DNA from: an uncultured Bacteroidaceae bacterium
Lineage (GTDB): Bacteria; Bacteroidota; Bacteroidia; Bacteroidales; GCA-2748055
DNA length: 64,000 bases
Direction: 5' to 3'
Assembly: GCA_964528675.1 (NCBI GenBank)
Contig: CAZGTU010000006.1
Span: forward strand, 29,424 to 93,423
The notes below the pieces were generated by a model, which saw only the letters and a program-made list of their open reading frames with translations, made no database searches and was not told the DNA's origin. Shown here in pieces: positions 23,164-54,936 of the stretch. The position numbers were made by a program, and so were the translations under genes. Position 1 is the stretch's first letter, and each line of letters starts with the position of its first letter.

Positions 23164-23165
23164 TT

Positions 23166-26357: not shown

Positions 26358-26387
26358 TTTTCAATTAAATAACTTTCTCTCAAAAAT

Positions 26388-27926: not shown

Positions 27927-27932
27927 TCCTGA

Positions 27933-29501: not shown

Positions 29502-29504
29502 TGC

Positions 29505-30974: not shown

Positions 30975-30992
30975 GTCAATTCCTTTATAAAA

Positions 30993-34226: not shown

Positions 34227-34278
34227 CTGAAAATGATTATTTCTTTTTTTGAACTATCATTTATTAGTAAGTGAAGCT

Positions 34279-36600: not shown

Positions 36601-36698
36601 TTTAGTTAGTTTCTTTTAAAAATCTCAATCAATCGCTTCACATATTTTTTCCGAAAATTCCGGAAAAACCTTTTCAATTTAGTTGCAGTTGTCTTCTG

Positions 36699-36706
36699 CA
36701 AACATA
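36699..36706 (-). promoter_or_regulatory. Candidate -7 promoter element of the SusCD/fasciclin operon
   Basis: Plus strand caaacata = minus strand TATGTTTG (TAnnTTTG), ~100 nt upstream of ATG 36600. Confidence 0.45.
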
Positions 36707-36783
36707 AAAAAAAATCAGTTAATCTTTTGTTAAATTATATTGCTACAGGATGAAATGCAATAAAATCAATACCTCTGACAAAT

Positions 36784-39700
36784 TTAATGTTCTAATTTTG
36801 ATATTTTTGAATTTTTTGTGTTATCTGAATTATGATCGACATCTACCCCGCCATTATCCTTAACGGCAGCAGGAGTGACACCATATTGGTCTTTAAAGCA
36901 CTTAATAAAATAAGATACATTATTAAAGCCCGAGAGATAGCAAATCTCCTTAACGCTTTTTGTTCTTTTCACAAGTAGTTCATAAGCTTTCTGGAGTTTA
37001 ATCAAGCGGATGAATTCACCGGGCGAATAACCCGTAAGTGCTTTGATCTTTCTATATAGTTGTGTACTGCTAATATTTAAACTTGATGCCAGCTCTTTTA
37101 CATTATAATCGGGATTGGCAAGATTGGATTCAAGCAATTTTCTGACATTGATAATAAATTCATCATCCCTGGATAGATTATTTTTTGTCACTTCAATCAT
37201 AAAATTCTGATCCAGGTATTTTTTACGTATAAGCTTTCTGTTTTTAATCAACCTGGAAATTTGTGAACTGATCACTCCCAGATCAAATGGTTTGGTGACA
37301 TAAGCATCTGCACCCACATCATATCCGGATATCATCTGCTCATTGGTATCTTTTGCAGTAAGCAAGATGACAGGGATATGACAGATGCTTTGAGAATCTT
37401 TGATTTCCTTGCAAAACTTATATCCATCCATCACCGGCATAATGATATCTGAAATAACGATATCAGGCATGATTTCCTTAACCAATTCAAGCCCATCCTT
37501 ACCATTACCAGCTTCATAAACAGCATACTCTTTTGATAGTACAGATTTAAGAAAACTCCTGAGATCTTCATTATCCTCAACAAGTAAAACTTTTAGCTCA
37601 TTGGAATCATCAATATCCCCATTATCGGATAAGTGCCATCCCTCAGAGGAGGCTTCTATTATTTCTGATTTGACTAATTCCTGATCAGTAGTTTCAGCAG
37701 CTTCTTCTCTTTCATATGGAAGATAAACATGAAACACCACTCCTTTTCCATTGTAAGACTCAACTTCAATCCTTCCTCCATGCAATTCAACCAGGGATTT
37801 TGAAAAAGAGAGCCCGATCCCGGCACCTTCAATATTCTCATCTTTTTTGTAAAACCGTTCAAAAATGCGATACTTTTCGTTTTCTTCAATTTCACTACCC
37901 TCGTTGAATACCGATATCCTTACCTCAACATCTGTTTTACCGAGTGATAAAACGATCGACCCCTCATCGGGAGTATGCTTAAAGGCATTGGATAAGAGGT
38001 TATATAATACTTCTTCAATTTTCTGGGAATCAACAGAAATAATTACCGGATCATCAGGAATCTCAAACTGCATTCTTACCTTCCTCCTTCCTTCAAATCC
38101 TTTAAAATTAATTCCAACCTCTTTTACCAGTTTACCAATATCCAGATTCTGACGATAAAGAGTAAGTTTCCCGGCATGTAATCTTCTGAAATCAATGATC
38201 TGGTTTATTAGCTTCAACAGGTAATTGGAGTTCCGATGGATCAGTAACAGATGATTTCTCCATTTAGGATTCACATCTGTGTAATTCTGCAGCATATCTT
38301 CCACCGGTCCGATAACCAGGCTTAAAGGTGTTCTGAGACCATGAGCAATATTGGTTAGAAACAGCATCTTACTCTCATTGGTTTGTATCGACATATCGTC
38401 CAGTTTCTTCTGGTATGCAAGTTTCTGCCGGTTGTATGCTATCCAGGCAAAGCTGAGAACGATAGCCAGGCCAATCAGAACATATACCAGTATGAAATAC
38501 CATTCTTTGTACCAGGGTGGAGTAATAATTAATCCTAATTGTTTAATATCGCCCAGGGGTACATCATCGGAACTATAAGCCCTGAGTTTTAAAGTATAAT
38601 TTCCATGAGGCAGGTTCGAAAATTGCAAATATCTTTTTTCTGCAGGAATATAATTCCAGTGATTGTCAAAACCTTCAAGTTTATATGCCAGATAATTACC
38701 CTCAGGATATTGATAATGCAAGACAGCAACACCTATGCTGAAGACTTTCATTGAAAATGGTAATGTCAACTGTTCTGTATAATTAATATTATTTGCCAGT
38801 GTATTATTTTTCGATATGGTATCACCAACTTCAATTTCTCTGTCAATGATCCTTAAGTCAGTAATGGCAAGTTTAGGAGCTATATTGTTTGGCTTAATAT
38901 CACCCGGAGTGAATGTTGTAAATCCATTATCTCCTCCAAAAAACATATCGCCATTCACATACCGGTAAAATGCATTTACCATATAAATATTACCCTGCGT
39001 TCCATCATAAAAGCTATATCTCACAAAACGAGGATTCTCTGCATATTGATTATAAGAAACAAGATCACTTTTTGTACTCATCCAGAGGACCCCTGTTTCA
39101 TCCCGTAAAATACCCATCACATCATTGCTTGGTAAACCATCCTCAATTGTCAGATGACTGAAAATATCTTCATCTGGATGATAAATATTGATACCGCCAC
39201 CCTGAGTCCCAAACCAGATGGTATTATCGAAATTCTCAAAAATACAGTTAATCTCATTGTTGTTCAGAAATTCAGGATCCGGTCTTGTAGCGACAAACCT
39301 TTTGAATGTCAATTCCGGAGCAACATTTCCAGAAAGATTAATTTTATTATAAGGAGTATTTAAAAGGTTAAGCCCGTTGGTAGTCCCAATCCAGAATCTT
39401 GACTTACTGTCAACATGCATGCTGATAATCTCATTATCACTCAGGGTTTGTGGATTATCACTTTCTGAAGTAAACTGATAATATATTAAATCCTCATTAT
39501 CAATAATATCCGGAACAAGTATAAGTCCGTAGCCTGCTACACCAAACCATGCATTCTTATTCTCATCTACGAATATTTTCCTTGTACTCCATCCAAATAT
39601 GGACTCTTCAGAAAATGGATACATTCTCCATTCGCCTTTTTCTTTGATTACCTTGTAAACCCCTTCCAATGTGCCGGCAAGGTAATAATCGTCTGTCACC

Positions 39701-40959
39701 CTCTCAATGTCCCATATTCCTTCTTCAAAATTACCTGTTGAGCCCTCGGAATATAACCTAATTCTATGAAATCTATTCATCCCGGGTTCATTATCCTTTT
39801 TCATAACGGTAATGCCCCCGACCCTGCATCCCACAAAAATTTCCCTTTCAGCTCCTTCAAAACACATCACAGTGTTTGATGCCAGGGAATTTTCATTATA
39901 AGGAATATGTCTGTATGTATTAAATTCCTTTTTCTGCAGATTTAAAATACTGATGCCCTGTCCCTGGTGGCCTACCCATAAGTTACCGGAAAAACCTTCA
40001 TAAAGAGAGAGAATAGTATTATTGAGCAAACTTCCCCATCGATAGGGGTTTCCCTCATAGGTGCCGGTATTTCCGGTATGCAGATCAATATAATGCAGTG
40101 CAGGATTGATTGCAGAACAATAAATTCGATTATCACCGGCATGGAGAATGTTTTGAATATCCTGTCCTTTAAAATAACTTTCTTTCAGATAATCATTTTT
40201 AATAACAGAATAAGGCTTTACACCTTCAGTAGTGGCAAGATAGATAGAACTTTCATTTTCCACATATACAGCATCATTGACATTACCTGAGGCTATATTC
40301 AGCTCTTTTACAAAAATATGGGGTGTGCCGTCAAAGTCGGAAAATTCACCGGAATACATTGTGGCAATATTTGTCTCTGAATTATTGGAAGCAAAATACA
40401 GCTTGTCGTCATTCGACATTGAAAAATTAAAGTAATAATTTGTTCCGGGATAGGAACTTCTGATCTCAATTTTGGGTGCAGGAGAATCCTGATTTACAAC
40501 AGGATCGGTCATTATGTAATAGAAACCATCAAGAGCATGAATTATCATCCTGTCCTCCAGTTCCAGGAAATGTAATACATTCAAAGAAACTGATTCATCT
40601 CTCTCAAATTCAAGGGTGATAAAATTATCTTTCTCACGGTTATATAAACATAAATGTCTGTCGGTAGCTATCCACAAATTATTTCTTGAATCAACAAAAA
40701 GCTCCTTGATCTTCTTTGTAGGCAGGCTCCTGGGATTGCCAAGCTCAGGCCTGTAGTGGCTAAAATCATATCCATTATATTTGATCAACCCCGACCATGT
40801 AGCAAACCACATCAGCCCGTCATCATCCTGGGCAATAGAGGTAATTTCACTGTCTTTCAATCCATCATAAGGGCGCAGGTATCTAAAATCGAAACCCGCG
40901 GTAGTTTTTACAGAAAATAACAGGAATGTAGTTAATAATATAGCGGTAGATTTTTTCAT
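36784..40959 (-). CDS. Hybrid two-component system regulator (beta-propeller sensor, Y_Y_Y, TM, HisKA/HATPase, receiver, AraC HTH)
   Basis: Reg_prop repeats ('WIGT..GL', 'GLPSNDV'); 'YKLEGFD..W'; H-box 'NIAHGLRTPL'; 'GAGIGLS'; receiver 'LLVEDN...SDIIMPVMDG...KPF'; AraC 'GFNNVSYFIKCFKDQYG'. Confidence 0.96.
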   Translation of the reverse strand: MKKSTAILLTTFLLFSVKTTAGFDFRYLRPYDGLKDSEITSIAQDDDGLMWFATWSGLIKYNGYDFSHYRPELGNPRSLPTKKIKELFVDSRNNLWIATDRHLCLYNREKDNFITLEFERDESVSLNVLHFLELEDRMIIHALDGFYYIMTDPVVNQDSPAPKIEIRSSYPGTNYYFNFSMSNDDKLYFASNNSETNIATMYSGEFSDFDGTPHIFVKELNIASGNVNDAVYVENESSIYLATTEGVKPYSVIKNDYLKESYFKGQDIQNILHAGDNRIYCSAINPALHYIDLHTGNTGTYEGNPYRWGSLLNNTILSLYEGFSGNLWVGHQGQGISILNLQKKEFNTYRHIPYNENSLASNTVMCFEGAEREIFVGCRVGGITVMKKDNEPGMNRFHRIRLYSEGSTGNFEEGIWDIERVTDDYYLAGTLEGVYKVIKEKGEWRMYPFSEESIFGWSTRKIFVDENKNAWFGVAGYGLILVPDIIDNEDLIYYQFTSESDNPQTLSDNEIISMHVDSKSRFWIGTTNGLNLLNTPYNKINLSGNVAPELTFKRFVATRPDPEFLNNNEINCIFENFDNTIWFGTQGGGINIYHPDEDIFSHLTIEDGLPSNDVMGILRDETGVLWMSTKSDLVSYNQYAENPRFVRYSFYDGTQGNIYMVNAFYRYVNGDMFFGGDNGFTTFTPGDIKPNNIAPKLAITDLRIIDREIEVGDTISKNNTLANNINYTEQLTLPFSMKVFSIGVAVLHYQYPEGNYLAYKLEGFDNHWNYIPAEKRYLQFSNLPHGNYTLKLRAYSSDDVPLGDIKQLGLIITPPWYKEWYFILVYVLIGLAIVLSFAWIAYNRQKLAYQKKLDDMSIQTNESKMLFLTNIAHGLRTPLSLVIGPVEDMLQNYTDVNPKWRNHLLLIHRNSNYLLKLINQIIDFRRLHAGKLTLYRQNLDIGKLVKEVGINFKGFEGRRKVRMQFEIPDDPVIISVDSQKIEEVLYNLLSNAFKHTPDEGSIVLSLGKTDVEVRISVFNEGSEIEENEKYRIFERFYKKDENIEGAGIGLSFSKSLVELHGGRIEVESYNGKGVVFHVYLPYEREEAAETTDQELVKSEIIEASSEGWHLSDNGDIDDSNELKVLLVEDNEDLRSFLKSVLSKEYAVYEAGNGKDGLELVKEIMPDIVISDIIMPVMDGYKFCKEIKDSQSICHIPVILLTAKDTNEQMISGYDVGADAYVTKPFDLGVISSQISRLIKNRKLIRKKYLDQNFMIEVTKNNLSRDDEFIINVRKLLESNLANPDYNVKELASSLNISSTQLYRKIKALTGYSPGEFIRLIKLQKAYELLVKRTKSVKEICYLSGFNNVSYFIKCFKDQYGVTPAAVKDNGGVDVDHNSDNTKNSKISKLEH

Positions 40960-41530: not shown

Positions 41531-44500
41531 ATGAAGTTAAAACTGTTACTTTTAACTCTGGCGGTATCCTGCGGTGTTCTAAATGCCCAGGATACTATCA
41601 GATCTTTGATTATTTCGGAGGCCAGGCTTGATGCTGCGCAGAATGCTTATGTTGAAATCACAAACGTAGGTGATGCTCCTCTGAATATGTCTGATTTTGA
41701 GTTCGGTACTGTGGGGCCATGGACACAACCTTACGAACCCGAAGAGAATTATTTTTTCATGCTCCCTGACAGGGAACTTGGAGTGAATGAAAGTTTCGTT
41801 ATGGCTATGGTCTATGATTTCGGACCCGAGCAATGGCTGGTTGATCCGGACAATTTCGATGAAAAGATCACCAAAGACGAAATGTGGACACTCGCTGATA
41901 TCCAGTTGCACTTCCCGGAACCCAAAGGATATCCGGATAACCCGACTGATTCCGTCTCTCCGAATTATCATGCGATGGAAGTATGGAACGGAAGGGATTG
42001 CTGGTATATTAGGCATCATGTTAGCGAAACAGATTCTGTTGTAGTTGACCAGGTTGGAGGCATCTTCACTGAAGATGACGGAACCAGCGAGGATAAGGCA
42101 CATGATGTTGCCGGTGTAACCGATGCAACCAACAACAGTGTCCTTGTCCGGAAATTCAGTGTTAAAACCGGTAATACCGATTTTGAAGCAGCGAGAGGTG
42201 TTGACCTCGCTGACTCGGAATGGATGCCTATTCCATTCTTATTTGGTGGTTGGGAACCCAATCGTGCTGTATTCTGGACAGTAGGCAACCATGGAGATTA
42301 CAACCTGAATGAAACAACTTTGGTTTCTGATAATGTGGATATCAACTGGCAAGACTCCATTCTTACCGTACCATGGGGTGTGAGAAATGACGACTCCCTG
42401 ATGTTCCAGTTTGACAGACAGCCGGGACTTGCATGGCATTATCATTATGCACCCAATCATGAAGATTCAGGATATGTATCAGCTCGTACGGGTGATGTAC
42501 TGACTGTTTATGCATGCGGAAATGACCTTGACAGGATCGACTTCAATGTTGAAGTTGCCGAGCCAACTGCAGATGCCAATATTGTAATTCCGAAGAGAGT
42601 TCCCGGAGATAACGGCTGGTACGGACAATGGGCAGGTGCTCCTTTTGAAGTTACCGACGGTGTTCCCGGTATGGACTCTATCAGGGAAGTTCCTTTCGGA
42701 ATAAGAACAGATACCATGCTCAAGTATCTTGAAAAAGCACCCAATGCTACATGGGAATTTGTTTGGGTTGACGGTGAAGAATCCACTTCCGTAGAAAACG
42801 GTGATATTCTCAGGGTTACTGCCGAAAGCGGAGCTCAGAAAGATTATTACATTCAGGTAGAAGAATACAGTCCAAGTCATAATGCTTATCTAAGCTCCAT
42901 CACATGGCCTGATATTCCTGAATTCTATTATGATGCTTATGGCTGGATTGGCGATACCGTACCTAATTTTGTCAGATCGAAATACGATTATAAGGTACAG
43001 GTTCCTTTCGATGTGGAGGGTATTCCTTCTCTCGTGCCGAAAACAGAACACCTGAATGCAAAAGTTGAGGTTGAAAGAGCTGCTTCACTTACAGGACCCG
43101 CTGCAAGCAGAACCATTACTTTCAACACAACTGCAGAAGATGACACCACGGAATTAATTTACAAAGTTCAGCTCGAGAAGGAGAAAAATCCCGATAATCT
43201 CCAGTCATGGGAAGGCGAACCCTTTGTTTCACAATTGATCTTCTGGGAACAGTGGGACAATGGTTTTGTTGAATTCTGCAATCCGGGTACAGAACCTCTC
43301 GATTTCAGTGATTATATGATCTTCTTCCAGTGGTCAAATGATCCGGCCGAAGCTATTACCTGGTTTACAGGCGAAGATGAGTGGATGGACAGGTACGTAA
43401 AATACATTCCCGGTTATAAATGGCAGGATTCCACCAACTGGAAAGTTGAGCCAGCAATTGCTGTTCAGGATCTTAATGTGAATCCGATTATACAACCCGG
43501 TGATGTATTTGTTATCGCTGATATCAGATCTACCGGTAACAGTGGGTATCCATGGTTTGCCAGTGAACAGTCTGACATAGACTTTAGCAATAATCCATGG
43601 GATGAACCGGTAGGTGAAACCTGTGCACGTCAGTGGACCGGTGCTAACCTTTTCCTTTACAAGATCCTTAATGACTCCATTAAGCAGGGACTTAAGCCTG
43701 CCACAGATCCGAATGACTTCGAACTTATCGAAACATTTGGCGGTGGAGATGGCAATGCATGGGTAATCGGAGGCCACACTGCAGATATGATCAACGGATG
43801 GGTAAGAAAGCCCCAGTATTTTGAACCCAAACCAGGATTCAAGGAATCATTCGGCAGCAATGAGGAAGACAGCGAATGGATCATGACTGACAGGGCGCAT
43901 TACCAGAAACTCAATGTCGGATGGCCTGCAGAGATCCTGCTTGTTGCTGACGGTCTTGGAAATCATTTCATGGACGAAGTAACTATCTTCAAATCCACAG
44001 TTACATCCCTTGCATACAAAGTGAGTCCGGGATATTCAATGGAAGAAGAGATAAGAGGTGTTGTTACAGGAACCACAGTAACTGAATTCCTTGATAACAT
44101 CATTCCTGCGGATACAGGACAGACATTGATTGTTAAGAGTGCTACAACAGATGAAGAACTGACAGGAGATCAAACCCCTGCAGATAGCGACAGTCTGATC
44201 GTGATCTCTGCCGATTCTGTCAATACTTCAGCATACCTCCTCGAGGTTACTGAAGATGGTCTGAATTCAGATGCCGTTCTTACTTCAGATCCTTATACAA
44301 TCACTGTTGATGGTGAAACCGGTACCATCGAAGGATTTGACTACGGGACTGCAGTGAAAACTGTTATGGAGAACGTTACCGTTCCTGCGGGAGCTGTGCT
44401 CACCGTTGTTGATGAATACGATGCTTATGTACCTATGAAGAAACTTAACTTCGATACCACTTACACAGATGTTGAAGTAAGAGCTGATATCTACTTTGAG

Positions 44501-45325
44501 GTTATTGCAGAAGATGGTGTGACCGAGATCACCTATCAACTCGTACCGACTGCGGAAGCTTCCGATGCTTTCGTAATGTCAGAAGTCTACAGTGTAGACC
44601 AGGCTACTTCACTCATCTCACTTGTTCCGATGGGAACCACTGCACCGTCAATGTTAAGCAACCTGATTGCACCTCCGGGAGCAACAGTTGTTATCGTTGA
44701 TAAGCTGGGAGATGAGCGTACCATGGGTGATGTTTACAAAGATGACCAGGTAATTGTCACCGCTGCTGACGGTGAAACAACCCGGACATACTACATGTCT
44801 ATGCTTGAAGAAGAAACCTTCCTGGCATATGTTGTTTCCGAAATGTATGATGTAGACCAGCAGGAGGGCATGATCTCAGGTTCCGGAGTTACAGGAAGCA
44901 CTACACTCACCGACTTCTATAACAACCTGACACCTGCACCCGATGCCACTATGGTAGTTCTTAACCAGGCCGGTGAAGAAAACACCACCGGAGACCTCGA
45001 TGAAGGTGACTATCTCATGGTTACTGCAGGTGACGGAGTAACCGTTACATATTATGAAATCACTCTGGATTACACAGGTGTAGATTTCGAAGATGCAGGA
45101 ATTAACATCTATCCTAATCCTTCAACCGGTATTATCAATGTTGCAGGACTCACCCAGGGAACCCGTATACATGTATACAACTCCGTTGGGGTAAGACTCC
45201 GCGACATTAAGGTACATCAGGCACATGAAGTGATCTCACTGGATGATCAGCCTGCAGGAATCTACTTCATTGTTGTTAGTGATGAAGAAAATGTAGTCGG
45301 ACGTTACAAATTACTTCTTAAGTAA
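41531..45325 (+). CDS. Large acidic non-catalytic T9SS-secreted protein (two lamin-tail-like domains, ~6 related ~85-aa repeats, cadherin-like sandwich, type A CTD)
   Basis: Sec signal; 'LIISEARLD...YVEITNVG' and 'FVSQLIF...FVEFCNPG'; repeats ending 'V.A.DG.T...Y'; CTD 'IYPNPSTG...VYNSVG...GIYFIVV...KLLLK'. No glycoside hydrolase motif seen. Confidence 0.8.
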   Translation: MKLKLLLLTLAVSCGVLNAQDTIRSLIISEARLDAAQNAYVEITNVGDAPLNMSDFEFGTVGPWTQPYEPEENYFFMLPDRELGVNESFVMAMVYDFGPEQWLVDPDNFDEKITKDEMWTLADIQLHFPEPKGYPDNPTDSVSPNYHAMEVWNGRDCWYIRHHVSETDSVVVDQVGGIFTEDDGTSEDKAHDVAGVTDATNNSVLVRKFSVKTGNTDFEAARGVDLADSEWMPIPFLFGGWEPNRAVFWTVGNHGDYNLNETTLVSDNVDINWQDSILTVPWGVRNDDSLMFQFDRQPGLAWHYHYAPNHEDSGYVSARTGDVLTVYACGNDLDRIDFNVEVAEPTADANIVIPKRVPGDNGWYGQWAGAPFEVTDGVPGMDSIREVPFGIRTDTMLKYLEKAPNATWEFVWVDGEESTSVENGDILRVTAESGAQKDYYIQVEEYSPSHNAYLSSITWPDIPEFYYDAYGWIGDTVPNFVRSKYDYKVQVPFDVEGIPSLVPKTEHLNAKVEVERAASLTGPAASRTITFNTTAEDDTTELIYKVQLEKEKNPDNLQSWEGEPFVSQLIFWEQWDNGFVEFCNPGTEPLDFSDYMIFFQWSNDPAEAITWFTGEDEWMDRYVKYIPGYKWQDSTNWKVEPAIAVQDLNVNPIIQPGDVFVIADIRSTGNSGYPWFASEQSDIDFSNNPWDEPVGETCARQWTGANLFLYKILNDSIKQGLKPATDPNDFELIETFGGGDGNAWVIGGHTADMINGWVRKPQYFEPKPGFKESFGSNEEDSEWIMTDRAHYQKLNVGWPAEILLVADGLGNHFMDEVTIFKSTVTSLAYKVSPGYSMEEEIRGVVTGTTVTEFLDNIIPADTGQTLIVKSATTDEELTGDQTPADSDSLIVISADSVNTSAYLLEVTEDGLNSDAVLTSDPYTITVDGETGTIEGFDYGTAVKTVMENVTVPAGAVLTVVDEYDAYVPMKKLNFDTTYTDVEVRADIYFEVIAEDGVTEITYQLVPTAEASDAFVMSEVYSVDQATSLISLVPMGTTAPSMLSNLIAPPGATVVIVDKLGDERTMGDVYKDDQVIVTAADGETTRTYYMSMLEEETFLAYVVSEMYDVDQQEGMISGSGVTGSTTLTDFYNNLTPAPDATMVVLNQAGEENTTGDLDEGDYLMVTAGDGVTVTYYEITLDYTGVDFEDAGINIYPNPSTGIINVAGLTQGTRIHVYNSVGVRLRDIKVHQAHEVISLDDQPAGIYFIVVSDEENVVGRYKLLLK

Positions 45326-45377: not shown

Positions 45378-45462
45378 TTTATTTTCAATATATTATGTCA
45401 GTCAGTTGATACGGTTGAGAGACCTGTTGAATAAAGGAAAGTTCCATTACAATTTAATATAT

Positions 45463-47433
45463 ATGAAGAAGCTAACTCTACTAACTGCACTAACATTTAT
45501 TTCCTTACTTGCATTTCCCCAGATCACAGCCTGGGAAGCTGCAGAGCAAATGCACAAAGGCATTAATCTGGGAAATACACTGGAACCACCCCTGGAGGGA
45601 GGCTGGAACAATCCACCTGCAGAGGAATATTATTTTGACCTCTACAAGAATGCAGGATTCCAATGTGTAAGAGTTCCCGTAAGATGGGATAAACACACTC
45701 AAACAAGCTCGCCTTATGCTGTAAATGAAGAATGGCTTCAGCGCGTGGAGGAAGTACTTGACTGGGGGCTGGAAAGAGATTTATTTGTTGTGGTCAATGC
45801 TCATCATGATAACTGGATTAAGGATAATTATGAAGATCCTGCCATGAGGGCCCGGTTTGACAGTATCTGGGCACAGATCTCACGACGCTTTAAAGATAAA
45901 CCCGAAAAACTAATCTTCGAGATCCTCAACGAACCTCACGGACTCACAAAAGCCCAGAATGATGATATGCATGCCCGGGTACTTTCCATTATAAGGAAAA
46001 CCAATCCGACACGACTTGTTATATTCCAGGGACATAACTGGGGAGGCTCAGATGAACTGATCGAAGCCGCAATACCCCGGGATGATTACCTTATTGGATC
46101 TTTTCACTCATACGATCCCTATCTTTTCGGACTTGAAGGAGAGGGAAGCTGGGGATCTCCCTCAGATGTAAGCACACTGAAAAGCAAATTTCAAAAAGTA
46201 AAAGACTGGTCCGACACACATAATATCCCGGTATTTCTGGGAGAATTCGGGGCTATTAATAAATGTGAATATAATTCACGCATGAAGCATTACAAGTTTT
46301 ATGTTCAGTTCGCCAGGGAATATGGTTTTGTGTATTGTGCATGGGATGACGGCGGAGATTTTCGCATTATGCAGCGGCAATCAAGGGGATGGAACGAAAT
46401 TAAAAACATACTTTTGCATACCAGCAAGAATTCACCTGCCGGACCAAAACTGGAACTTCACCAGGACACTATTATGAGATTGAGCTGGGAGAATAAATTA
46501 GCAGAAGCAGACAGCATTTGCATTGAGCGGCGCAATGATTTCAGTAACTTCTGGAAGATTGCCACTCTTGAGCCCGATGCTACAGCGTATTTTGATGAAG
46601 GACTTTTCCCCAATTCATATTACTATTACCGTGTAGTTGCCTATTATAACGGAGGAGAAAAATTATACTCACATCCTGTAAAAAAACTTATGCCCGTTTA
46701 TGTTCCGAAAGTGAGAGAAGCTTTCAAAGGATATCCTTTCCCTATTCCGGGTATCATTGAGGCTGAAGATTTTGATAAAGGAGGAGAAGGTCTCTCCTAT
46801 CACGATGGGACCCCGGGCAACATTGCCGGAGCTTACCGGCCCAATGAAGGAGTGGATATTTATGAAACCGGCAATGAAGAATACCAGGTTGGCAGCATAA
46901 TGCCCGGAGAATGGTATGAATATTCCGTAAATGTCCGGAATAAAGGCATTTATGGCCTGGATGTTTATATATCGGCAATTCAGGAAGGAGGAAGCTTTAA
47001 AGTATCAGTGGGAGATTCAGAAACAAATACCCTGCAGGCTCCAAATACCGGAAGCTGGCTTGTTACAACTCCCGTGAGCACAAACATTGAACTTTCTGCC
47101 GGTGAACAGATAATGCGTTTCACTATAATTGATGATCCATTATTTAACATTGATAAGTTTGAATTTAGCCTCGACAATACATCTGCAGAACAATACCCTG
47201 AACATTTCTCATTCCAGGCTTATGTGAACAATTATGAGGAAATCATTATCAAGTTTGAGGAAGGCACTGATATTTCAATATTGCATTTATATGATGTAAG
47301 GGGAAATCGGGTAAAAAGCATTACAGCTCCTTCTTCAAACCCGAAAATCCAGACTTCTGATCTGGAAAATGGAATTTATATAATTCAAGCCTTGTCTGAT
47401 AAAATGAATATAACAAAGAAGATAATACTGTAA
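45463..47433 (+). CDS. GH5 endo-beta-glucanase/mannanase (GH5_25-like) + FN3 + CBM6-like + T9SS CTD
   Basis: Likely start ATG 45463 (MKKLTLL); 'GINLGNTLEPP.EGGW', 'VRVPVRW', acid/base 'EILNEP', nucleophile 'FLGEFG', 'WDDGG'; 'IEAEDFDKGGEG.SYHD'; CTD 'LYDVRG...GIYII...KKIIL'. Confidence 0.88.
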   Translation: MKKLTLLTALTFISLLAFPQITAWEAAEQMHKGINLGNTLEPPLEGGWNNPPAEEYYFDLYKNAGFQCVRVPVRWDKHTQTSSPYAVNEEWLQRVEEVLDWGLERDLFVVVNAHHDNWIKDNYEDPAMRARFDSIWAQISRRFKDKPEKLIFEILNEPHGLTKAQNDDMHARVLSIIRKTNPTRLVIFQGHNWGGSDELIEAAIPRDDYLIGSFHSYDPYLFGLEGEGSWGSPSDVSTLKSKFQKVKDWSDTHNIPVFLGEFGAINKCEYNSRMKHYKFYVQFAREYGFVYCAWDDGGDFRIMQRQSRGWNEIKNILLHTSKNSPAGPKLELHQDTIMRLSWENKLAEADSICIERRNDFSNFWKIATLEPDATAYFDEGLFPNSYYYYRVVAYYNGGEKLYSHPVKKLMPVYVPKVREAFKGYPFPIPGIIEAEDFDKGGEGLSYHDGTPGNIAGAYRPNEGVDIYETGNEEYQVGSIMPGEWYEYSVNVRNKGIYGLDVYISAIQEGGSFKVSVGDSETNTLQAPNTGSWLVTTPVSTNIELSAGEQIMRFTIIDDPLFNIDKFEFSLDNTSAEQYPEHFSFQAYVNNYEEIIIKFEEGTDISILHLYDVRGNRVKSITAPSSNPKIQTSDLENGIYIIQALSDKMNITKKIIL

Positions 47434-47444
47434 CAATAACGAAA

Positions 47445-47762
47445 ATGAAAACTATCAAACTAATCCTGATAATAATTACCCTTACACCTTTACTTGTTGG
47501 CGCACAGATTGTTAAAAAACATGGAGATCTATCTGTTAACGAAATTTACCTGGTTGACAAGTCAGGAGAACCCTTAATGTTAAAAGGTGTAAGTTATGGC
47601 TGGCATAACTGGTGGCCCCGTTTCTACAATAAAAGCACGGTAAAATGGCTGGCAGAAGACTGGAATGCAATGGTTGTCAGAGCGGCAATGGGAATAGAAC
47701 CGGAAAAAGGATATCTTGAGCCCGGCGAGAGATCATTGAGGCTCGGGAAGAAGGAAAAATGA
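47445..47762 (+). pseudogene. Truncated GH5_2-type cellulase (signal peptide + ~70 aa of catalytic domain only)
   Basis: 'HGDLSV...LVDKSGEPLMLKGVSYGWHNWWPRFYN...DWNAMVVRAAMGIE..GYL' is a GH5_2 N-terminus. Similarity stops at ~aa 92, both catalytic Glu are missing, and the next gene starts 23 nt after the stop. Confidence 0.8.
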
Positions 47763-47785: not shown

Positions 47786-50700
47786 ATGCGAAAACTACTG
47801 CTAATTAAACTAACACTACTCTCGCTTTTTACAACATTTGCACAGGATCCGGAATACGGCTATCTGGCTGCAGAGGCAGAAGCAGAGGACGGAACTCTTT
47901 CGGGAGTGGTTGTTGGAAGCTCCGATCCAGGATATTCAGGAAGCGGCTATGTGACCGGTTTTGACAGTGATAATGATAAGGTAACAGTTGATATGGATGT
48001 ACCGGAAACAGGATTTTACAGGCTTGTAATAGATTATAATGCCCCCAATGGCGAAAAAACCCAGTTCCTTTCAGTTAATGCCGGACCTTCTTCATCACTG
48101 GTCTTTCCGGCTACAACTGCCTTTGCCCGGGTTGATGCCGGTAAATATCACCTTCAAAAAGGACAAAACAGCTTTTCAATTATAAAATCCTGGGGCTGGT
48201 CAAATATAGACAAGTTTTCACTTTATTATGCAGAAGCGAATGAATATAACATCTCCCCTGCCCCTGTCGATTCTGCTGCCAATGAAGAAAGCATTGCTCT
48301 TTATGATTTCCTGAAGCTTCAATTTGGGAAAAGAATAATTTCAGGGCAAACTCACAATTACTACGATGAAATTGTCAGTTTAACAGGAAAATCTCCAATG
48401 TTGAGAACAGGTGACTTCCAGGTTTATACGGAGGGTTACCCCTACCTGTGGAAAGACGGGGGACATACCTTTGGAAAAACCGATGATGGCACTGTGGATG
48501 AACTCATCAACTGGTATAATTCCACCAATGGAAAAGGAATAGTATCATTCCAGTGGCACTGGCACTCCCCTACTGGCGGTGAAGCCGGAACCAATACTTT
48601 TTATACCGATTACACTACATTCGACATCACCCGTGCAGTCACCCCCGGAACTCCTGAATATGATGATATCATCAGGGATATTGATGACATATCAACTGAA
48701 TTGAAGAAATTTCGTGATGCAGGAATTCCTGTTCTCTGGCGGCCGCTTCATGAAGCAGGGGGAGGATGGTTCTGGTGGGGAGCCAGAGGAGCAGAACCCT
48801 GCCTGGAGCTCTATGATATTATATATGACCGGATGAAAAATCATCACCAGCTTCATAATCTTATCTGGGTATGGTCAACCCCTGAAGAAGAATGGTATCC
48901 GGGAAATGATAAGGTGGATATTATAGGATATGATTCCTATCCCGGAGATTTCAACTATGGCATACAAAAAACCATGTTCGATGCCCTTTACCGGTTGACT
49001 TCAGGAGAAAAGCTCATTGCGATGACAGAAAACGGACCGATTCCCGATCCGGATGCCTGCCTGGAAGAAGATGCCCCATGGTTATTGTTTATGGCCTGGA
49101 GTGACCTTGTGAGCAGTCAGAATTCTGAACAGCATATAAAAGATGTGTACAATAATACGAATGTGCTTACACTTGAATCGGATAATGCGATTACCGGACC
49201 TGAATGGAGAAGTGCGCTTTATCCCGAAGACTGGAAACCGGGATACCAGGATGAATATGGTCGGTATCTGCATGATTTTTCATACGCAGGCTATCATAAA
49301 AGTGAAAAAGAGATACCCTTTATCACCGAAAATATTGTGGATGTAACCCAACCCCCTTACAATGCAGACAATACCGGCAATGATGATGTCACAAGTATAA
49401 TTCAACAGGCACTTGATGATGTGAGCTCCTCCGGAGGGGGTGTAGTTTTCCTTCCTGCCGGCACTTACAGAATTAAGCCCGCTGCTTCAGGTGACTATGC
49501 CCTCAGAATCCGATATGACGGGACTATCCTAAGAGGTGCCGGACCAGGTGAAACCTACATCTGGAATGATGAGACTTATATGAGACAAAAAGATATCATC
49601 AGGGTGAATGGAGACTGGTCTGGTTGGTTCGAAAATTACGGTACTACCACAAAAGTAGCTAAAGATGTACTGCTCCCAACCCGCATTATTCCGGTTGAAT
49701 CGGTAAGTGGCTTCAAAAAAGGTGATAAAATTATGATCACCAATCCTGCTACCGATGCCTTTATAGCCGAACATGACATGACGGGCCACTGGAAACAGTC
49801 TGCTATCAAAGGTGTTGCATTTAAGAGAGTGATAGATTCGATAGATGTACAGAACAATCTGCTATTTATTGATGCTCCGACTCGCTATTTTCTTAAAACC
49901 CGCGATAATGCAAAAGTGAGTCATGCAGGAAAGCACATCAGAGAATGCGGTATTGAAGACCTGTCCATTGGAAATACGGAAAATCCGAAAAGCGGCTGGG
50001 ATGAAGAGTCTTACTCAACCTCAGGGACAGGAGCATATGATGTACATTTTTCTCAGGCTATCAGTATGAATTATGTTGAAGATTCATGGATCAAAAATGT
50101 AAATACCTACAAGCCAGACGTGAATACTCTGGATTTCCACATTCTCTCAAACTGTCTTATCCTTCGTTCCTGCAGACAGGTGACTGTGGATTCTTGTTTT
50201 TTCCAGAAACCCCAATATGAAGGAGGAGGCGGAAACGGTTACATGTATACCCTCGAGTCGAACGATTGCCTTATCAAAAACAGCAGGGCAAATCACAGCC
50301 GGCATAATTATGATTTCAAGTTTCCCTTCAGCAATGGCAATGTTATCCATAACTGCCTGGGGGAGAACTCAAAATATTCCAGCGATTTTCACATGTTTCT
50401 GAGTATGTCCAACCTTTTTGATGTATTCACTGTGAATGGTGATTATCTTGAATCCATGTTCAGGCCATGGGGAGGAAGCTGGTCCATTCACGGATATTCA
50501 TCAACGGAATCGGTTTTTTACAATACCTACGGTGAAGCTTATCATCCCAACCGTGATTACATTGTTGAATCGCGGCAATATAAATGGGGCTATATCATAG
50601 GTACTTCAGGACCTGCCGACAGGGTGAAGACAGAACCTGTTTCCGGCACCAGCAATGGTTTTTCTTATGACACCTCTCCTGAAGATATGGTTGAAGGTGT

Positions 50701-51745
50701 GGGAATGGGGCAGGATCTGAGACCGGTTTCCCTGTACCTTGATCAATTTGAAAGACGTACAAAAACATATCCCGGTATAGGTACATTTGATGTTAGCATT
50801 GAAGTGAGAGATGAAATATCTAATGAAACAATCAGTGATGCTGATGTCAGTATTTACAATGAAACCCTATCTACCAACAGTTCCGGTAAAGCGGTATTCA
50901 ACAATGTATTGAATTCATTTTATCTCAGCATCGACGGAGGAAATTTCAGGGATCTTACCGAAAGGCAGATAGTTATTTACAGCGATACAAGCCTTGTGTT
51001 TTACCTGGAAAGAAATAATTATGATGTAAGTTTTCGATTATATGATGAAAAGGATCTTGAGCCGTTCTGGGGAGTGAATGTAAGGCTGGGAGGTTCTACG
51101 AAAGTTACTGATAACAATGGTGTTGTAAACTTCAATGTACCGGAAGGTGAACACGAATATTCGATTGACAAGCTATCGTACCACCGGGAAACCGGAACAT
51201 TGGATGTTCATTCAGATACGGTAATGGATTTTTTCCTGGTCCGTACACATGCAAATATAAAATTCAGGCTCAGGGAAGGCACTACTCCCGTAAATGATGC
51301 AATCGTAAAGATGAAAGATGACTCACTTGTAAGCACTTCCCTTGGATTGGCTGAATTCAGGCAAAAACCTGTGGGAGAAAATTATTCTTACAGTATAACC
51401 AAAGAAAATTATCATAACAGAGATGGCAGTCTTTACCTCACTACAGATACTACCATAAATGTTGAAATGCTTAAAAAACCCTCCGGAATTAATGAAATTC
51501 ATCCTGATGATAATTTCCAGTTCTGGCCAAATCCGGCAGAAGATGTGTTATTCTGTCGATTCAAGGATTATTCCAAAGATATAATCCTGAAGATTACCGA
51601 TCTTAAAGGGAAAGAAATCATTGTTATTGAAAATCATGGTGCTCATGAACTGATCATTAATACCGCTAAGCTGGATACGGGATTGTATTTACTTGAATAT
51701 AATTCTTTGAAAATGAATAAATCATTTCTTCTGCTGGTCAGATGA
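47786..51745 (+). CDS. Multimodular CBM35-GH26 beta-mannanase + unassigned right-handed beta-helix + 3 beta-sandwich spacers + T9SS CTD
   Basis: CBM35 'AEAEDGTLSGV...GYSGSGYV'; GH26 'WHWHSP', acid/base 'LWRPLHEAGGGWFWWG', nucleophile 'AMTENG'; beta-helix 'HDFSYAGY...IIQQALD...GGGVVFLPAGTYRI'; CTD 'FWPNPA...ITDLKG...GLYLLEY'. Confidence 0.88.
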   Translation: MRKLLLIKLTLLSLFTTFAQDPEYGYLAAEAEAEDGTLSGVVVGSSDPGYSGSGYVTGFDSDNDKVTVDMDVPETGFYRLVIDYNAPNGEKTQFLSVNAGPSSSLVFPATTAFARVDAGKYHLQKGQNSFSIIKSWGWSNIDKFSLYYAEANEYNISPAPVDSAANEESIALYDFLKLQFGKRIISGQTHNYYDEIVSLTGKSPMLRTGDFQVYTEGYPYLWKDGGHTFGKTDDGTVDELINWYNSTNGKGIVSFQWHWHSPTGGEAGTNTFYTDYTTFDITRAVTPGTPEYDDIIRDIDDISTELKKFRDAGIPVLWRPLHEAGGGWFWWGARGAEPCLELYDIIYDRMKNHHQLHNLIWVWSTPEEEWYPGNDKVDIIGYDSYPGDFNYGIQKTMFDALYRLTSGEKLIAMTENGPIPDPDACLEEDAPWLLFMAWSDLVSSQNSEQHIKDVYNNTNVLTLESDNAITGPEWRSALYPEDWKPGYQDEYGRYLHDFSYAGYHKSEKEIPFITENIVDVTQPPYNADNTGNDDVTSIIQQALDDVSSSGGGVVFLPAGTYRIKPAASGDYALRIRYDGTILRGAGPGETYIWNDETYMRQKDIIRVNGDWSGWFENYGTTTKVAKDVLLPTRIIPVESVSGFKKGDKIMITNPATDAFIAEHDMTGHWKQSAIKGVAFKRVIDSIDVQNNLLFIDAPTRYFLKTRDNAKVSHAGKHIRECGIEDLSIGNTENPKSGWDEESYSTSGTGAYDVHFSQAISMNYVEDSWIKNVNTYKPDVNTLDFHILSNCLILRSCRQVTVDSCFFQKPQYEGGGGNGYMYTLESNDCLIKNSRANHSRHNYDFKFPFSNGNVIHNCLGENSKYSSDFHMFLSMSNLFDVFTVNGDYLESMFRPWGGSWSIHGYSSTESVFYNTYGEAYHPNRDYIVESRQYKWGYIIGTSGPADRVKTEPVSGTSNGFSYDTSPEDMVEGVGMGQDLRPVSLYLDQFERRTKTYPGIGTFDVSIEVRDEISNETISDADVSIYNETLSTNSSGKAVFNNVLNSFYLSIDGGNFRDLTERQIVIYSDTSLVFYLERNNYDVSFRLYDEKDLEPFWGVNVRLGGSTKVTDNNGVVNFNVPEGEHEYSIDKLSYHRETGTLDVHSDTVMDFFLVRTHANIKFRLREGTTPVNDAIVKMKDDSLVSTSLGLAEFRQKPVGENYSYSITKENYHNRDGSLYLTTDTTINVEMLKKPSGINEIHPDDNFQFWPNPAEDVLFCRFKDYSKDIILKITDLKGKEIIVIENHGAHELIINTAKLDTGLYLLEYNSLKMNKSFLLLVR

Positions 51746-52083: not shown

Positions 52084-54936
52084 ATGTCTATCAAAAAAAT
52101 CGCATGCATTATTTTACTGTCAATTCTGACGCATTCTCTTTTCTCCCAGACCAAATTCATTATAATTGATCAGTTCGGGTATTTGCCACAAGCTGAGAAG
52201 ATTGCCGTAATAAAAAATCCTATTAAAGGATTTGATGCCGGAAGAAGCTTTCAGCCGGGAAATATTTACTCGGTGGTGAATGCCGCCAGTGGAGAAAAAA
52301 TTTTCACCGGATCTCCCGTTGCCTGGAAGAGCGGCATGACTCATTCAGGTTCCGGCGACCGGGTATGGCATTTCGATTTTTCCGGGGTGAGTGAACCCGG
52401 AACATATTATATTCTCGATGAACAGCGGGGACAGCGGTCTTACGATTTTATCATTGCCGAAAATATATATAATGAAGTCTTAAAACATGCCATGCGCACC
52501 TTCTTTTATCAAAGAGCAGGTTTTCCTAAAAAAGCCCAATATGCCGGCGAGGAATGGGCAGATGAAGCAAGTCATATCGGGCCTTTACAGGATAAAAACT
52601 GCCGGAGTTTCTTTGATAAGGACAATCCCGACACTGAAAGAGATGTAAGCGGTGGCTGGTATGATGCAGGTGATTATAACAAATACACCAATTGGACAGC
52701 AAATTATATAGTTGAATTCATGAAAGCTTATCTTGAAAGACCGGAGGCCTGGGGAGATGATTACAACATACCGGAATCGGGGAATGGGATCCCTGATATT
52801 CTGGATGAGGCTAAATGGGGGATTGACCATCTTTTAAGAATGCAGCAGCAGGATGGAAGTGTTCTCAGTATAGTAGGAGAAGCCGGAGGAAGCCCTCCCT
52901 CCTCCGCTACCGGAGCATCATATTATGGACCTCCAAATACCTCAGCAACCTTAAATACTGCTGCAAGTCTGGCCATAGCATCAAAGGTATACAGAAGCAT
53001 CGATATGAATTCTTATGCCGACAGCCTTCTCACCGCAGCCCGGGATGCCTGGGACTGGGCAGAATTGTATCCTGATTCCCTCTTCAACAATAACGATCCT
53101 GCATACAATTCACAGGGTCTGGGTGCAGGAAGGCAGGAGGTTGATGATTATGGTCGTCTGATGGTAAAACTGGAAGCAGCATGTTACCTGTTTGAAGTCA
53201 CCGGCGATGTCATGTACCGTGATTTTTTCGATGCAAACTACAAACAAAGTCATATGTTTCAATGGGGCCATGCCTATCCCTATGAACACCGAAACCAGGA
53301 CGCCCTGCTTTATTATACCAGCCTGGAAAATGGCTCCGCAAATGTAAAACAGGATATCCTTGATGTATACAGAAATGCTATGCTTTCTTCCGATATCAAT
53401 TTCCCTGCCCATGAGAACAAAATGGATCCCTATTTCGCGTTTCTGGAGAGCTATACATGGGGTAGCAATGGGATAAAATCCGCCCAGGGAAGCATGTTCT
53501 ACAATCTAATATCCTATTATGAAAATTCATCCGACAGTGCAAAAGCCAGCACTGCAGCAATGAAATACATAAACTACATACATGGGGTCAATCCCCTGAA
53601 TTTTGTATACCTGTCAAACATGTATGATTACGGAGCAGACAGCTCCGTGAATGAATTTTATCATTCATGGTTTACAAATGGAAGTGAGAAATGGGATCGC
53701 GTGGGTGAGTCTTTATACGGACCTCCTCCGGGTTATCTTACCGGGGGACCAAATCCCTCCTACAACCGGGATGGTTGCTGCCCGGATAATTGTGGTGCCG
53801 GGAACAACAGTAAATGTACATCAGAATCATTAAGTCCTCCCAAAGGTCAACCCGAACAGAAATCTTATAAAGACTGGAATACAAGCTGGCCTCAAAACTC
53901 ATGGGAAGTCACCGAGAACAGTTGTGGCTACCAGACAAACTACATACGATTATTATCAAAATTTGTAAATATTGATAAAGACTGCAATGGAGATCCGGGA
54001 GGAACTGCATTTATCGATTCATGCGGCGTATGTGCGGGCGGAAATACAGGGATAACTCCTTCACTTTCAAAAGATGAATGTGATTTTCCGGTTGATTGCA
54101 GGGGAATTGAAAATGGCGCTGCTTTCATAGATTCCTGTGGCAATTGTGCCGGAGAATATACTGGAATTACACCAGTTTTGGATACCAGCCTTTGCATAGA
54201 GCCTGTTGAGGAATACGATGTAACAATCAGACTATTGGACAGCTATAATAATGATCCATTCTGGGGAGTTCCTGTGGAGCTGGGAGAATATTCGGAAGTA
54301 AGTGATGGAGAGGGAGAAGTTGTTTTTATTCTCGCAGAAGGGGAATACAATTACCAGATCAACAAGATTTCATATAAACCGGAGAGCGGAACAATAAATA
54401 TTGTTTCAGATACAGTTATAGATTTTTTCCTGGTCAAAACCCATGCGAATATAAAATTCCGGCTGAAAAACGGCACTACACCTGTAAACAATGCATGGGT
54501 TAAGCTGAGGAATGATTCTCTGGCTACAAATTCACTGGGTATAGCAAATTTCAATGAAATACCGGTCGGAGAAAATTATAGTTACTCTGTCAGGAAAGAA
54601 GGTTTTTACCTGATTGAAGGAACAATTTCTCCTTTAAGCGACACCACGCTGAATATTGATATGGAGAAAAAACCGGTCAATATACCTAATCAATTTAAGG
54701 AAAGTAATTTCAGTTTTTATCCGAATCCTGCAGATAATCATATTCGTTGCACATTGGAAAATATGAAATCCGATATCTCAATCCGGATCACAGACCTGAA
54801 TGGAAGGGATTACATCAACATACATCCGGCGGAAGAGGAGTTTATCCTTAACACATCGGATCTCAATACCGGACTTTATATTCTGCAATATTTAGCAGGA
54901 AATAAAAAGGAAAATTTCCTCCTCATTATCAGATAA
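52084..54936 (+). CDS. GH9 endoglucanase (N-terminal Ig-like) + 2 Cys-rich repeats + 2 beta-sandwich spacers + T9SS CTD
   Basis: 'IDQFGYLP..EKIAV' Ig domain; 'GGWYDAGDYNKY', 'PDILDEAKW', 'YIHGVNP', 'SWEVTENSCGYQ'; CTD 'FYPNPA...ITDLNG...GLYILQY'. Confidence 0.9.
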   Translation: MSIKKIACIILLSILTHSLFSQTKFIIIDQFGYLPQAEKIAVIKNPIKGFDAGRSFQPGNIYSVVNAASGEKIFTGSPVAWKSGMTHSGSGDRVWHFDFSGVSEPGTYYILDEQRGQRSYDFIIAENIYNEVLKHAMRTFFYQRAGFPKKAQYAGEEWADEASHIGPLQDKNCRSFFDKDNPDTERDVSGGWYDAGDYNKYTNWTANYIVEFMKAYLERPEAWGDDYNIPESGNGIPDILDEAKWGIDHLLRMQQQDGSVLSIVGEAGGSPPSSATGASYYGPPNTSATLNTAASLAIASKVYRSIDMNSYADSLLTAARDAWDWAELYPDSLFNNNDPAYNSQGLGAGRQEVDDYGRLMVKLEAACYLFEVTGDVMYRDFFDANYKQSHMFQWGHAYPYEHRNQDALLYYTSLENGSANVKQDILDVYRNAMLSSDINFPAHENKMDPYFAFLESYTWGSNGIKSAQGSMFYNLISYYENSSDSAKASTAAMKYINYIHGVNPLNFVYLSNMYDYGADSSVNEFYHSWFTNGSEKWDRVGESLYGPPPGYLTGGPNPSYNRDGCCPDNCGAGNNSKCTSESLSPPKGQPEQKSYKDWNTSWPQNSWEVTENSCGYQTNYIRLLSKFVNIDKDCNGDPGGTAFIDSCGVCAGGNTGITPSLSKDECDFPVDCRGIENGAAFIDSCGNCAGEYTGITPVLDTSLCIEPVEEYDVTIRLLDSYNNDPFWGVPVELGEYSEVSDGEGEVVFILAEGEYNYQINKISYKPESGTINIVSDTVIDFFLVKTHANIKFRLKNGTTPVNNAWVKLRNDSLATNSLGIANFNEIPVGENYSYSVRKEGFYLIEGTISPLSDTTLNIDMEKKPVNIPNQFKESNFSFYPNPADNHIRCTLENMKSDISIRITDLNGRDYINIHPAEEEFILNTSDLNTGLYILQYLAGNKKENFLLIIR

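Follow-up and report, generated by a model that had tools for sequence, protein, structure and literature searches.

Among polysaccharide lyases (PLs), the PL29 enzyme BT3328 of Bacteroides thetaiotaomicron (BtCDH; NCBIfam model NF058554) is a surface chondroitin sulfate and hyaluronan endo-lyase, shown experimentally to be an endo-acting beta-eliminase on both polymers (PMC9067506, PMC6994673), and its first ~300 residues are possibly a spacer common to BT3329 (PMC6994673). A second point of reference is CelAly of marine Flavobacteriia, a bifunctional enzyme with modules of glycoside hydrolase (GH) family 5 and of PL31 (PMC13235733). Here we describe a 64,000-nucleotide stretch of contig CAZGTU010000006.1 of an uncultured Bacteroidaceae bacterium (positions 29,424 to 93,423, forward strand; the whole stretch is referred to as the window) in which a GH26 enzyme gene also encodes a 519-residue beta-helix module, termed X, that is homologous to BT3328 over its whole catalytic region. 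Profile comparison, rather than the family boundaries of CAZy, places X as a deeply divergent branch of the PL29 superfamily. We predict, with a probability of roughly 0.6, that X is a second catalytic module and a PL29-superfamily lyase for a uronate-containing wall polymer.

The gene and its modules are arranged as follows (window coordinates; aa, residue of the full protein).

47786..51745, +, GH26-X gene: 1319-aa multimodular enzyme secreted by the type IX secretion system (T9SS), with signal peptide, carbohydrate-binding module (CBM) 35, GH26, X, Ig-like repeats and C-terminal sorting domain (CTD)
47876..48220, +, CBM35 (aa 31-145; Pfam PF16990, E 2.4e-24)
48266..49171, +, GH26 catalytic domain of beta-mannanase type (aa 161-462; Pfam PF02156, E 2e-59)
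49202..50758, +, X module (aa 473-991; 519 aa), right-handed beta-helix placed by profile in the PL29 superfamily
49202..49294, +, conserved N-terminal extension of X (module residues 1-31), 'WRSxLYPExWxPG...LHDFSYAGY'
49358..49600, +, PF12708 cap (aa 525-605), to which the N-terminus of AlgE4/AlgE6 mannuronan C5-epimerases is similar
49574..49936, +, inserted beta-rich domain (module ~125-245; approximate bounds from the secondary structure of the model)
50045..50524, +, core coils of X with invariant polar residues, putative active-site groove
50303-50305, +, H840 (full-protein numbering, as in the next four lines)
50384-50386, +, D867
50390-50392, +, H869
50462-50464, +, R893
50522-50524, +, N913
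50759..51505, +, CarboxypepD_reg/prealbumin-like C-terminal repeats (aa 992-1240)
51524..51712, +, T9SS type A CTD (aa 1247-1309; PF18962/TIGR04183)

The N-terminus of the protein is signal-peptide-like. All sequence strings on which a first-pass annotation of this DNA had drawn lie where it placed them, with base 49202 opening codon 473 and residue 991 ending at 50758. Its report of a complete GH26 domain ahead of X also agrees with the profile match, which covers positions 1-308 of 311. The GH26 domain carries glutamate motifs ('LHEAGG' at aa 322 and 'MTENG' at aa 414), and its best relatives in the Protein Data Bank (PDB) are GH26 endo-beta-1,4-mannanases, led by 3ZM8 (E 2e-59) and followed by 6HPF and 3WDQ.

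Family relationships and fold of the X module

Profile-profile alignment with hhalign joined the X family to the DUF4955 family with a probability of 100% (E 3.4e-48, 462 columns) and to a set of four BT3328-like proteins (PF12708 + PF16315 + PF16378, ~812-868 aa) with a probability of 99.6% (E 1e-24, 446 columns, 25% identity). The second alignment spans module residues 9-519 and residues 304-839 of 848 in the BT3328-like proteins, a region that we take to be the catalytic part of BT3328 because it begins just past the possible spacer. In a merged alignment, D25, S27, A29, G30, H368, D/E395, H397, L405, D407, N441, S510, Q515 and R519 (module numbering, used throughout unless stated) are conserved in the X, DUF4955 and PL29-like groups. 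Full-length profile homology and the residues common to the three groups thus argue for X as a deep branch of the PL29 superfamily. X and BT3328 are both extracellular Bacteroidota enzymes of polysaccharide utilization loci (PULs), and both have a 'D-[FY]-S-Y-A-G-Y' motif, a PF12708 cap, an inserted beta-domain and a C-terminal 'P-x-S-L-Y-x-x-Q-L-x-x-R'. X differs in lacking the ~300-residue N-terminal spacer/DUF4988, in having R367, R421 and H430 as invariants of its own, and in a plant/algal-type context of GH26, GH5 and GH9, whereas BT3328 is found with glycosaminoglycan lyases, sulfatases and GH88.

Stand-alone DUF4955 (PF16315) proteins are like X in size and architecture and in H368, D395, H397, L405 and D407. 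They differ in being only ~20% identical to X and in constituting a separate uncharacterized family whose score to BT3328 is better than that of X (E 2e-30). The same genome encodes one such protein, a stand-alone 543-aa DUF4955/PL29-like beta-helix protein (contig C39, L083:1513-3144, +), with E 2e-30 to the BT3328 model and 21% identity to X over ~400 residues; the open reading frame (ORF) that follows it has no family match. Literature searching returned no paper naming DUF4955, and searches on PL29 with GH105 and on new beta-helix polysaccharide lyase families returned nothing on the X family.

Domain libraries recognized little of X. When aa 473-991 were searched alone against Pfam, the only match was PF12708 over ~80-100 N-terminal residues (34.9 bits, cut-off 27, E 1.8e-8), and the remainder beyond this cap had no Pfam assignment; PF16315 was not detected by Pfam in the X of the window and matched weakly in a few X-family members only. 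NF058554, the NCBIfam model of the BT3328 family of hyaluronic acid endo-lyases, gave a partial match (module 11-301 on profile positions 311-619) of 36.8 bits (E 1.4e-9), far below its equivalog cut-off of 1100. The first-pass annotation could place the domain in no named family and offered it as a candidate new CAZyme family. At the level of Pfam and NCBIfam, with the cap and sub-threshold matches only, its difficulty is borne out, and no full-length match to GH28, GH55 or AlgE emerged; the hhalign results nevertheless give X a place beside PL29 and DUF4955, and the proposed new family becomes a deeply divergent branch with remote PL29 homology.

X is not GH28, GH55, GH87, PL6 or PL9. For GH28, there was no PF00295 match, NCBIfam rhamnogalacturonidase models covered ~35 cap residues (E 0.002-0.1), and 1RMG (RG-ase A) matched the cap only (E 0.054). 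GH55 enzymes of the Lam55A type have two tandem beta-helix domains (~700+ aa) versus the single 519-aa helix of X, and 3EQN gave a cap-only match (E 0.15) and was not in the Foldseek top 50. An AlgE-type mannuronan C5-epimerase was also considered and set aside, as similarity was limited to ~65 cap residues with Foldseek template-modelling (TM) scores of 0.27-0.34.

An AlphaFold2 model of the module, built on a 33-sequence alignment (A1), had a mean predicted local distance difference test score (pLDDT) of 95.6 and a predicted TM score of 0.94. Consistent with the first-pass description of a pectin-lyase-like beta-helix with its N-terminal signature and an inserted beta-domain, the model is a right-handed beta-helix of successive three-strand coils with a PF12708 cap. 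An N-terminal extension (residues ~1-44), unstructured yet highly conserved, is followed by the cap helix and first coils, the beta-rich insertion (~125-245) and regular three-strand coils from ~250 to 470. Foldseek comparison of the model with the PDB recovered generic beta-helix neighbours only, all with TM scores of at most 0.47, so no member of the X family has a solved structure. Leading matches were lyases and depolymerases, namely 7W1C (Klebsiella K1 capsule lyase, E 6e-12), 9K4A and LKA1 gp49 (4RU4), with AlgE4 and GH110 behind them and the PfbA adhesin also among the matches. The three phage depolymerases (E 6e-12 to 1e-10) are beta-helices with a comparable inserted domain; they differ from X in being trimeric virion proteins with TM scores of 0.40-0.47, 10-15% identity and no family relation at the sequence level. 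The inserted beta-domain occurs as well in PL29-like proteins and in 9K4A, the K1-specific capsule depolymerase of Klebsiella phage K64-1, whose profile match covers positions 171-284 of the A1 alignment (634 alignment positions, which are not module numbering). Searches of the PDB with the single sequence and with the 33-sequence profile gave cap-level matches only, to AlgE epimerases and assorted beta-helix proteins, with AlgE4/AlgE6 at E 1e-7 to 7e-11 confined to ~65 cap residues. PL31 enzymes have a beta-helix fold, and no similarity of X to solved PL31 structures was detectable by sequence or among the top Foldseek matches.

X is one conserved unit and a member of a large family rather than an orphan. 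A word-indexed search retrieved more than 1000 proteins; identities among the best 120 were 48-72%, in nearly every case across 100% of the query, and with more than 100 proteins the full-query identity was 48-69%. An exhaustive search of 1.84 billion representatives (50%-identity clusters) yielded 3029 matches at E <= 1e-3, including 469 at E <= 1e-30 that nearly all covered query residues 1/2-519. Members align end to end with every invariant column retained, and the ~520-residue unit delimited by the first-pass annotation accordingly corresponds to a module of 519 residues that recurs in hundreds of proteins, far beyond chance. The family, which numbers hundreds of clusters at 50% identity, extends over Bacteroidota, Ignavibacteriales, Planctomycetota (Phycisphaerae), Candidatus Sumerlaeota, Paenibacillus and human-gut metagenomes. 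Stand-alone secreted proteins of ~545-560 aa are common among its members and carry the public labels 'hypothetical', 'glycosyl hydrolase family 28-related' or 'GH55 protein'. Partner domains in 42 multidomain members were CBM32/F5_F8 (15), CBM96 (13), T9SS CTD (7), SLH (5), GH26 (4), CBM35 (4), GH18 (2), GH44 (2), PL6 chondroitinase B (1) and GH115_C (1); one family member has a dockerin. A 1079-aa protein from the representative search (P0127) has two tandem beta-helix modules, with an X-type module at residues 30-538 and a second in its C-terminal stretch that gives a weak DUF4955 signal at residues 966-1075.

Invariant residues fall in two groups. The N-terminal set comprises W2, S4, W11, P13, H24-D25-F26-S27 and A29-G30-Y31. 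The helix set comprises H282, N308, S316, a 'GGGGNGY' loop (341-347, including Y347), R367-H368, D395-F-H397, N404-L-x-D407, R421, H430 and N441, and in the AlphaFold2 model these residues open the first strand of successive coils, ~20-32 residues apart. Every one is retained in the window's X, and the His, Arg and Asp candidates singled out at first pass prove to be family-invariant: R367-H368 in 'HSRHNYDF', D395/H397 in 'SSDFHM' and H430 in 'IHGYSS'. X is also the best-conserved domain between orthologs. In comparisons of the window protein with two full-length orthologs, X was 66-67% identical, GH26 43-66%, CBM35 30-51% and the C-terminal repeats ~35%, a pattern that fits the earlier suggestion of a second catalytic domain. 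In the source genome the X gene is single-copy, with no second copy of X. It is an accessory gene, present in 5 of 41 relatives, neither of two same-genus genomes and 2 of 151 genomes drawn evenly from the whole order.

Genomic neighbourhoods and phylogeny

We collected 80 genome loci and clustered their ORFs. Two sets are described, 49 close loci of the fused type and 31 non-redundant loci with stand-alone modules. The close loci derive mostly from Prolixibacteraceae and other Bacteroidales metagenome-assembled genomes (MAGs) and have modules at least 58% identical to that of the window. Their X genes are arranged as CBM35-GH26-X (~1310 aa), GH26-X (~1190 aa), GH44-CBM35-GH26-X (~1845 aa), GH44-X (~1390 aa) or X with only C-terminal repeats and CTD (~870 aa). 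Conserved neighbours are a ~1276-aa T9SS protein (34 of 49), a GH5-CBM6 protein (27), a 321-332-aa GH5 (28), and SusC/SusD and fasciclin proteins; GH44, GH9, a carbohydrate esterase-CBM32-GH5 protein and a sulfatase occur occasionally.

Stand-alone modules, ~50% identical over all 519 residues, have different company. A PF07470 (GH105/GH88) gene was present in 10 of the 31 loci and was the immediately adjacent ORF in nine of those 10, against an estimated chance of ~3% of loci for a GH105/88 neighbour within ~20 kb (nine PF07470 genes in 5.6 Mb). These loci come from Hymenobacter (3), Pedobacter, Sphingobacteriales, Bacteroidales (2), an unclassified Bacteroidetes MAG (L074) and Ignavibacteriales, and five further loci have GH105/88 as well (L086, L117, L124, L133 and L136), so that the gene is mostly a direct neighbour of X where it occurs. 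The neighbour in Hymenobacter matches 4CE7, an ulvan-type unsaturated 3S-rhamnoglycuronyl hydrolase (E 8e-126). In a Paludibacter locus, the ORF directly upstream of X is a GH105-DUF4861 fusion, and a Pel9A-like protein and another copy of X also occur there; the GH105 neighbour in this locus is closest to the putative GH105 protein 3QWT and also matched YteR (1NC5). Other recurrent neighbours of stand-alone modules are PL14, a PF05426 alginate-lyase-like protein, PL8, GH2, GH3, GH10 and a GH44-like protein. In Hymenobacter, Pedobacter and Sphingobacteriales, conserved proteins of ~274 and ~471 aa accompany the GH105-X pair (L052:7936-8763, L054:4111-5526 and homologs); neither has a Pfam or NCBIfam match, and both would be additional components of this presumed acidic-glycan locus. 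In six human-gut loci (L139, L141-L143, L145 and L146; e.g. L143:6908-9808), X belongs to a protein with two CBM32 domains and a CBM35-like domain, a patatin-like gene lies upstream, and the GH81 domain of the neighbouring proteins is that of an endo-beta-1,3-glucanase.

A FastTree phylogeny of 144 modules, for which six DUF4955 proteins supplied the root, resolved the GH26/GH44-fused modules as monophyletic (52 rows, support 100), with the module of the window inside. The fused clade sits inside a larger clade of 79 rows (support 95), GH105/88-adjacent members occur in each of the two other sub-clades of the latter (L057, L074, L075 and L136; L071 and L086), and the next branch outside is the Hymenobacter/Pedobacter GH105-adjacent group. 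Deeper clades with GH105/88 adjacency contain L124/L133 and L117, the latter sister of the human-gut GH81 group. Adjacency is phylogenetically scattered and entails at least 7-8 changes on the tree. Because GH105/88-adjacent clades bracket the fused clade, the latter derives from within lineages coupled to unsaturated-uronate processing, and it has kept all of the invariant residues.

Predicted activity of the X module

The lyase prediction, in which chemistry, residue roles and an acidic substrate are inferred from homology, conservation and gene context, can be put in mechanistic terms. A polysaccharide containing uronic acid would lie in a groove along the helix face that the first strands form, where X would cut it by beta-elimination, with His368/His397 and Asp395 as the proton-transfer machinery and Arg367/Arg421/Asn441 as neutralizers or binders of the carboxylate. 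The product would have a 4,5-unsaturated uronate end, which GH105/GH88 enzymes from other loci of the genome would remove. The K1 lyase is metal-independent and relies on Tyr311/His373/Arg397 (PMC8822698); the spacing of H397 and R421 in X, 24 residues, equals that of its His373 and Arg397, a comparison of residue counts without superposition that is suggestive only of residue roles. Through fusion to a CBM35-GH26 beta-mannanase, one T9SS surface enzyme would attack two interwoven polymers, mannan or glucomannan and an acidic matrix glycan. Such fusion logic has a precedent in the GH5-PL31 enzyme CelAly (PMC13235733), likewise a single secreted polypeptide joining a hydrolase of fibrillar beta-glycan to a lyase for an acidic matrix polymer of the same wall. 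CelAly differs in its modules (GH5 and PL31 versus GH26 and PL29-like) and in its substrate, alginate.

The first-pass proposal of a polymer co-occurring with mannan or cellulose is plausible, and the evidence points to one that contains uronic acid. Xanthan, RG-I, ulvan-like glycans and glucuronan were weighed as substrates, and context alone singles out none of them. Association with PL14, PF05426, GH105 and CBM96, the founding member of which binds alginate (PMC9971899), points loosely to glucuronate-rich polymers. Our leading guess is a glucuronate-containing polymer such as glucuronan or an ulvan-like or rhamnoglucuronan-type glycan. More tentatively, X may found a new family of polysaccharide lyases, a sister group of PL29 and DUF4955 with undescribed specificity. 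It would then act on an acidic, glucuronate-containing glycan in the matrix of plant or green-microalgal/fungal cell walls, physically interwoven with mannan, glucan or chitin. A family of this kind would explain fusion or adjacency to GH26, GH44, GH5/GH9, GH18 and GH81 as well as to GH105/88, PL14 and PL8, and GH26-X proteins would then be genuine hydrolase-lyase bifunctional enzymes of wall deconstruction.

Several observations weigh against a lyase. Similarity to PL29 is remote (25% identity over aligned columns; 37 bits versus the 1100-bit cut-off), beta-helix superfamilies can house differing chemistries, members of the X family are biochemically uncharacterized, and a stacking of the invariant residues along one face of the modelled helix would follow from one-coil spacing only. 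Genomic context adds to these points: no GH105/88 gene occurs in any of the 49 close fused-type loci, whose partners are the neutral-glycan enzymes GH26, GH44, GH5 and GH9, and none is on the contig of the window, the nine in the genome lying elsewhere. A family-wide association with GH105/88 was expected and not upheld, since a broader sample of 80 metagenome loci, gathered with distant stand-alone members as seeds, had GH105/88 nearby in only four (L117, L124, L133 and L136), among varied contexts that included LacI regulators, prepilin-type N-methyl and PEP-CTERM proteins, short-chain and 2-hydroxyacid dehydrogenases and ABC transport. In the six human-gut loci, X is flanked by two ~1700-1800-aa proteins, each with GH81 and five CBM32 domains, and GH18 and GH44 fusions are found elsewhere in the family. 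From the low count in metagenome loci and the GH81 contexts, we conclude that the GH105/88 link is real yet not universal and that neutral-glycan partners are common.

These contexts suit a different enzyme, a beta-helix glycoside hydrolase of an unnamed family acting on a neutral beta-glycan or side chain that accompanies mannan, cellulose or beta-1,3-glucan, with Asp395 and another carboxylate, e.g. Asp25 or Asp407, as the catalytic pair. The clade of the window is fused or adjacent almost only to hydrolases, the GH81, GH18 and GH44 associations and the locus without GH105/88 gene are in keeping, and public pipelines already label relatives 'GH28-related' or 'GH55 protein'. We consider a hydrolase, the main rival, less likely than a lyase. 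The sole characterized homolog is the lyase BT3328, the invariants are rich in His, Arg and Asn but include few carboxylates of the helix face, GH28- and GH55-type matches are confined to the cap, and GH105/88 adjacency recurs over the tree, also in the clades that bracket the fused one. Less probable still is that X cleaves no glycosidic bond and either modifies the polymer, as an esterase or as a uronate C5-epimerase of the AlgE4 kind, or is a non-catalytic beta-helix module for binding or spacing. Its cap sequence is nearest to AlgE4/AlgE6, D395-F-H397 (D-x-H) recalls the DPH motif of mannuronan epimerases, and beta-helices such as PfbA serve as adhesins too. However, AlgE similarity ends with the cap and TM scores are ~0.3, an epimerase would be out of place in a degradative PUL and in fusions to secreted depolymerases, and strict invariance of polar residues across 40-50% identical sequences, in the best-conserved domain of the protein, argues against a mere spacer. 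Predicted PL29-superfamily lyase activity therefore remains our favoured explanation for X.

The surrounding locus and implications

The enzyme arm in which the GH26-X gene lies is flanked by a divergent PUL arm.

21289..40959, -, divergent PUL arm: hybrid two-component sensor, two SusC/SusD pairs and three fasciclin-domain proteins
41531..45325, +, 1264-aa T9SS protein at the head of the enzyme arm, kept in 34 of 49 close loci
45406..47433, +, GH5-CBM6-CTD neighbour enzyme, a partner kept in 27 of 49 close loci
52084..54936, +, GH9-CTD enzyme, downstream of the GH26-X gene

The protein at 41531-45325 is the most conserved neighbour of fused X genes, and its family matches are CTD and weak LTD only. 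On the opposite strand (21289-36600), the three fasciclin-domain proteins occupy positions of surface-glycan-binding proteins around the two SusC/SusD pairs, and their families turn up again in related loci. Between the GH5-CBM6 and GH26-X genes, a 105-aa ORF (47445-47762, +) is a remnant of the ~321-332-aa GH5 gene, the intact counterpart of which is present in 28 of 49 related loci. What survives is residues 33-108 alone (47502-47729, 64% identity), and there is no space for the rest because the next gene begins 24 bp further on. By eye, the translations of the GH26-X and downstream GH9 proteins have a closely similar prealbumin-like C-terminal cassette before their T9SS CTDs (~51020-51481 and ~54214-54675, +), with common strings such as 'PFWGV', 'THANIKFRL' and 'PVGENYSYS'. 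The GH5 of the window is closest to enzymes of the CtCel5E, TmCel5A and FnCel5A type, which together with the mannanase-type GH26 suggests a locus of glucomannan or beta-glucan type.

X is not a categorically new system. Within the PL29-type beta-helix superfamily it represents a large branch, uncharacterized and misannotated, that is fused here to GH26. Its ties to the PL29 superfamily and to GH105/GH88 provide a concrete hypothesis that is cheap to examine, namely that X acts as a lyase on a uronate polymer, and the stand-alone Hymenobacter and Pedobacter orthologs are easy test proteins for it. Should X prove to be a hydrolase, it would instead define a new beta-helix GH family. If lyase activity is confirmed, the X family would supply the 'missing lyase' of many PULs that have GH105/88 but no recognized PL, widespread misannotation would be corrected, and a hydrolase-lyase fusion design would be added to those available for deconstruction of plant or algal biomass.

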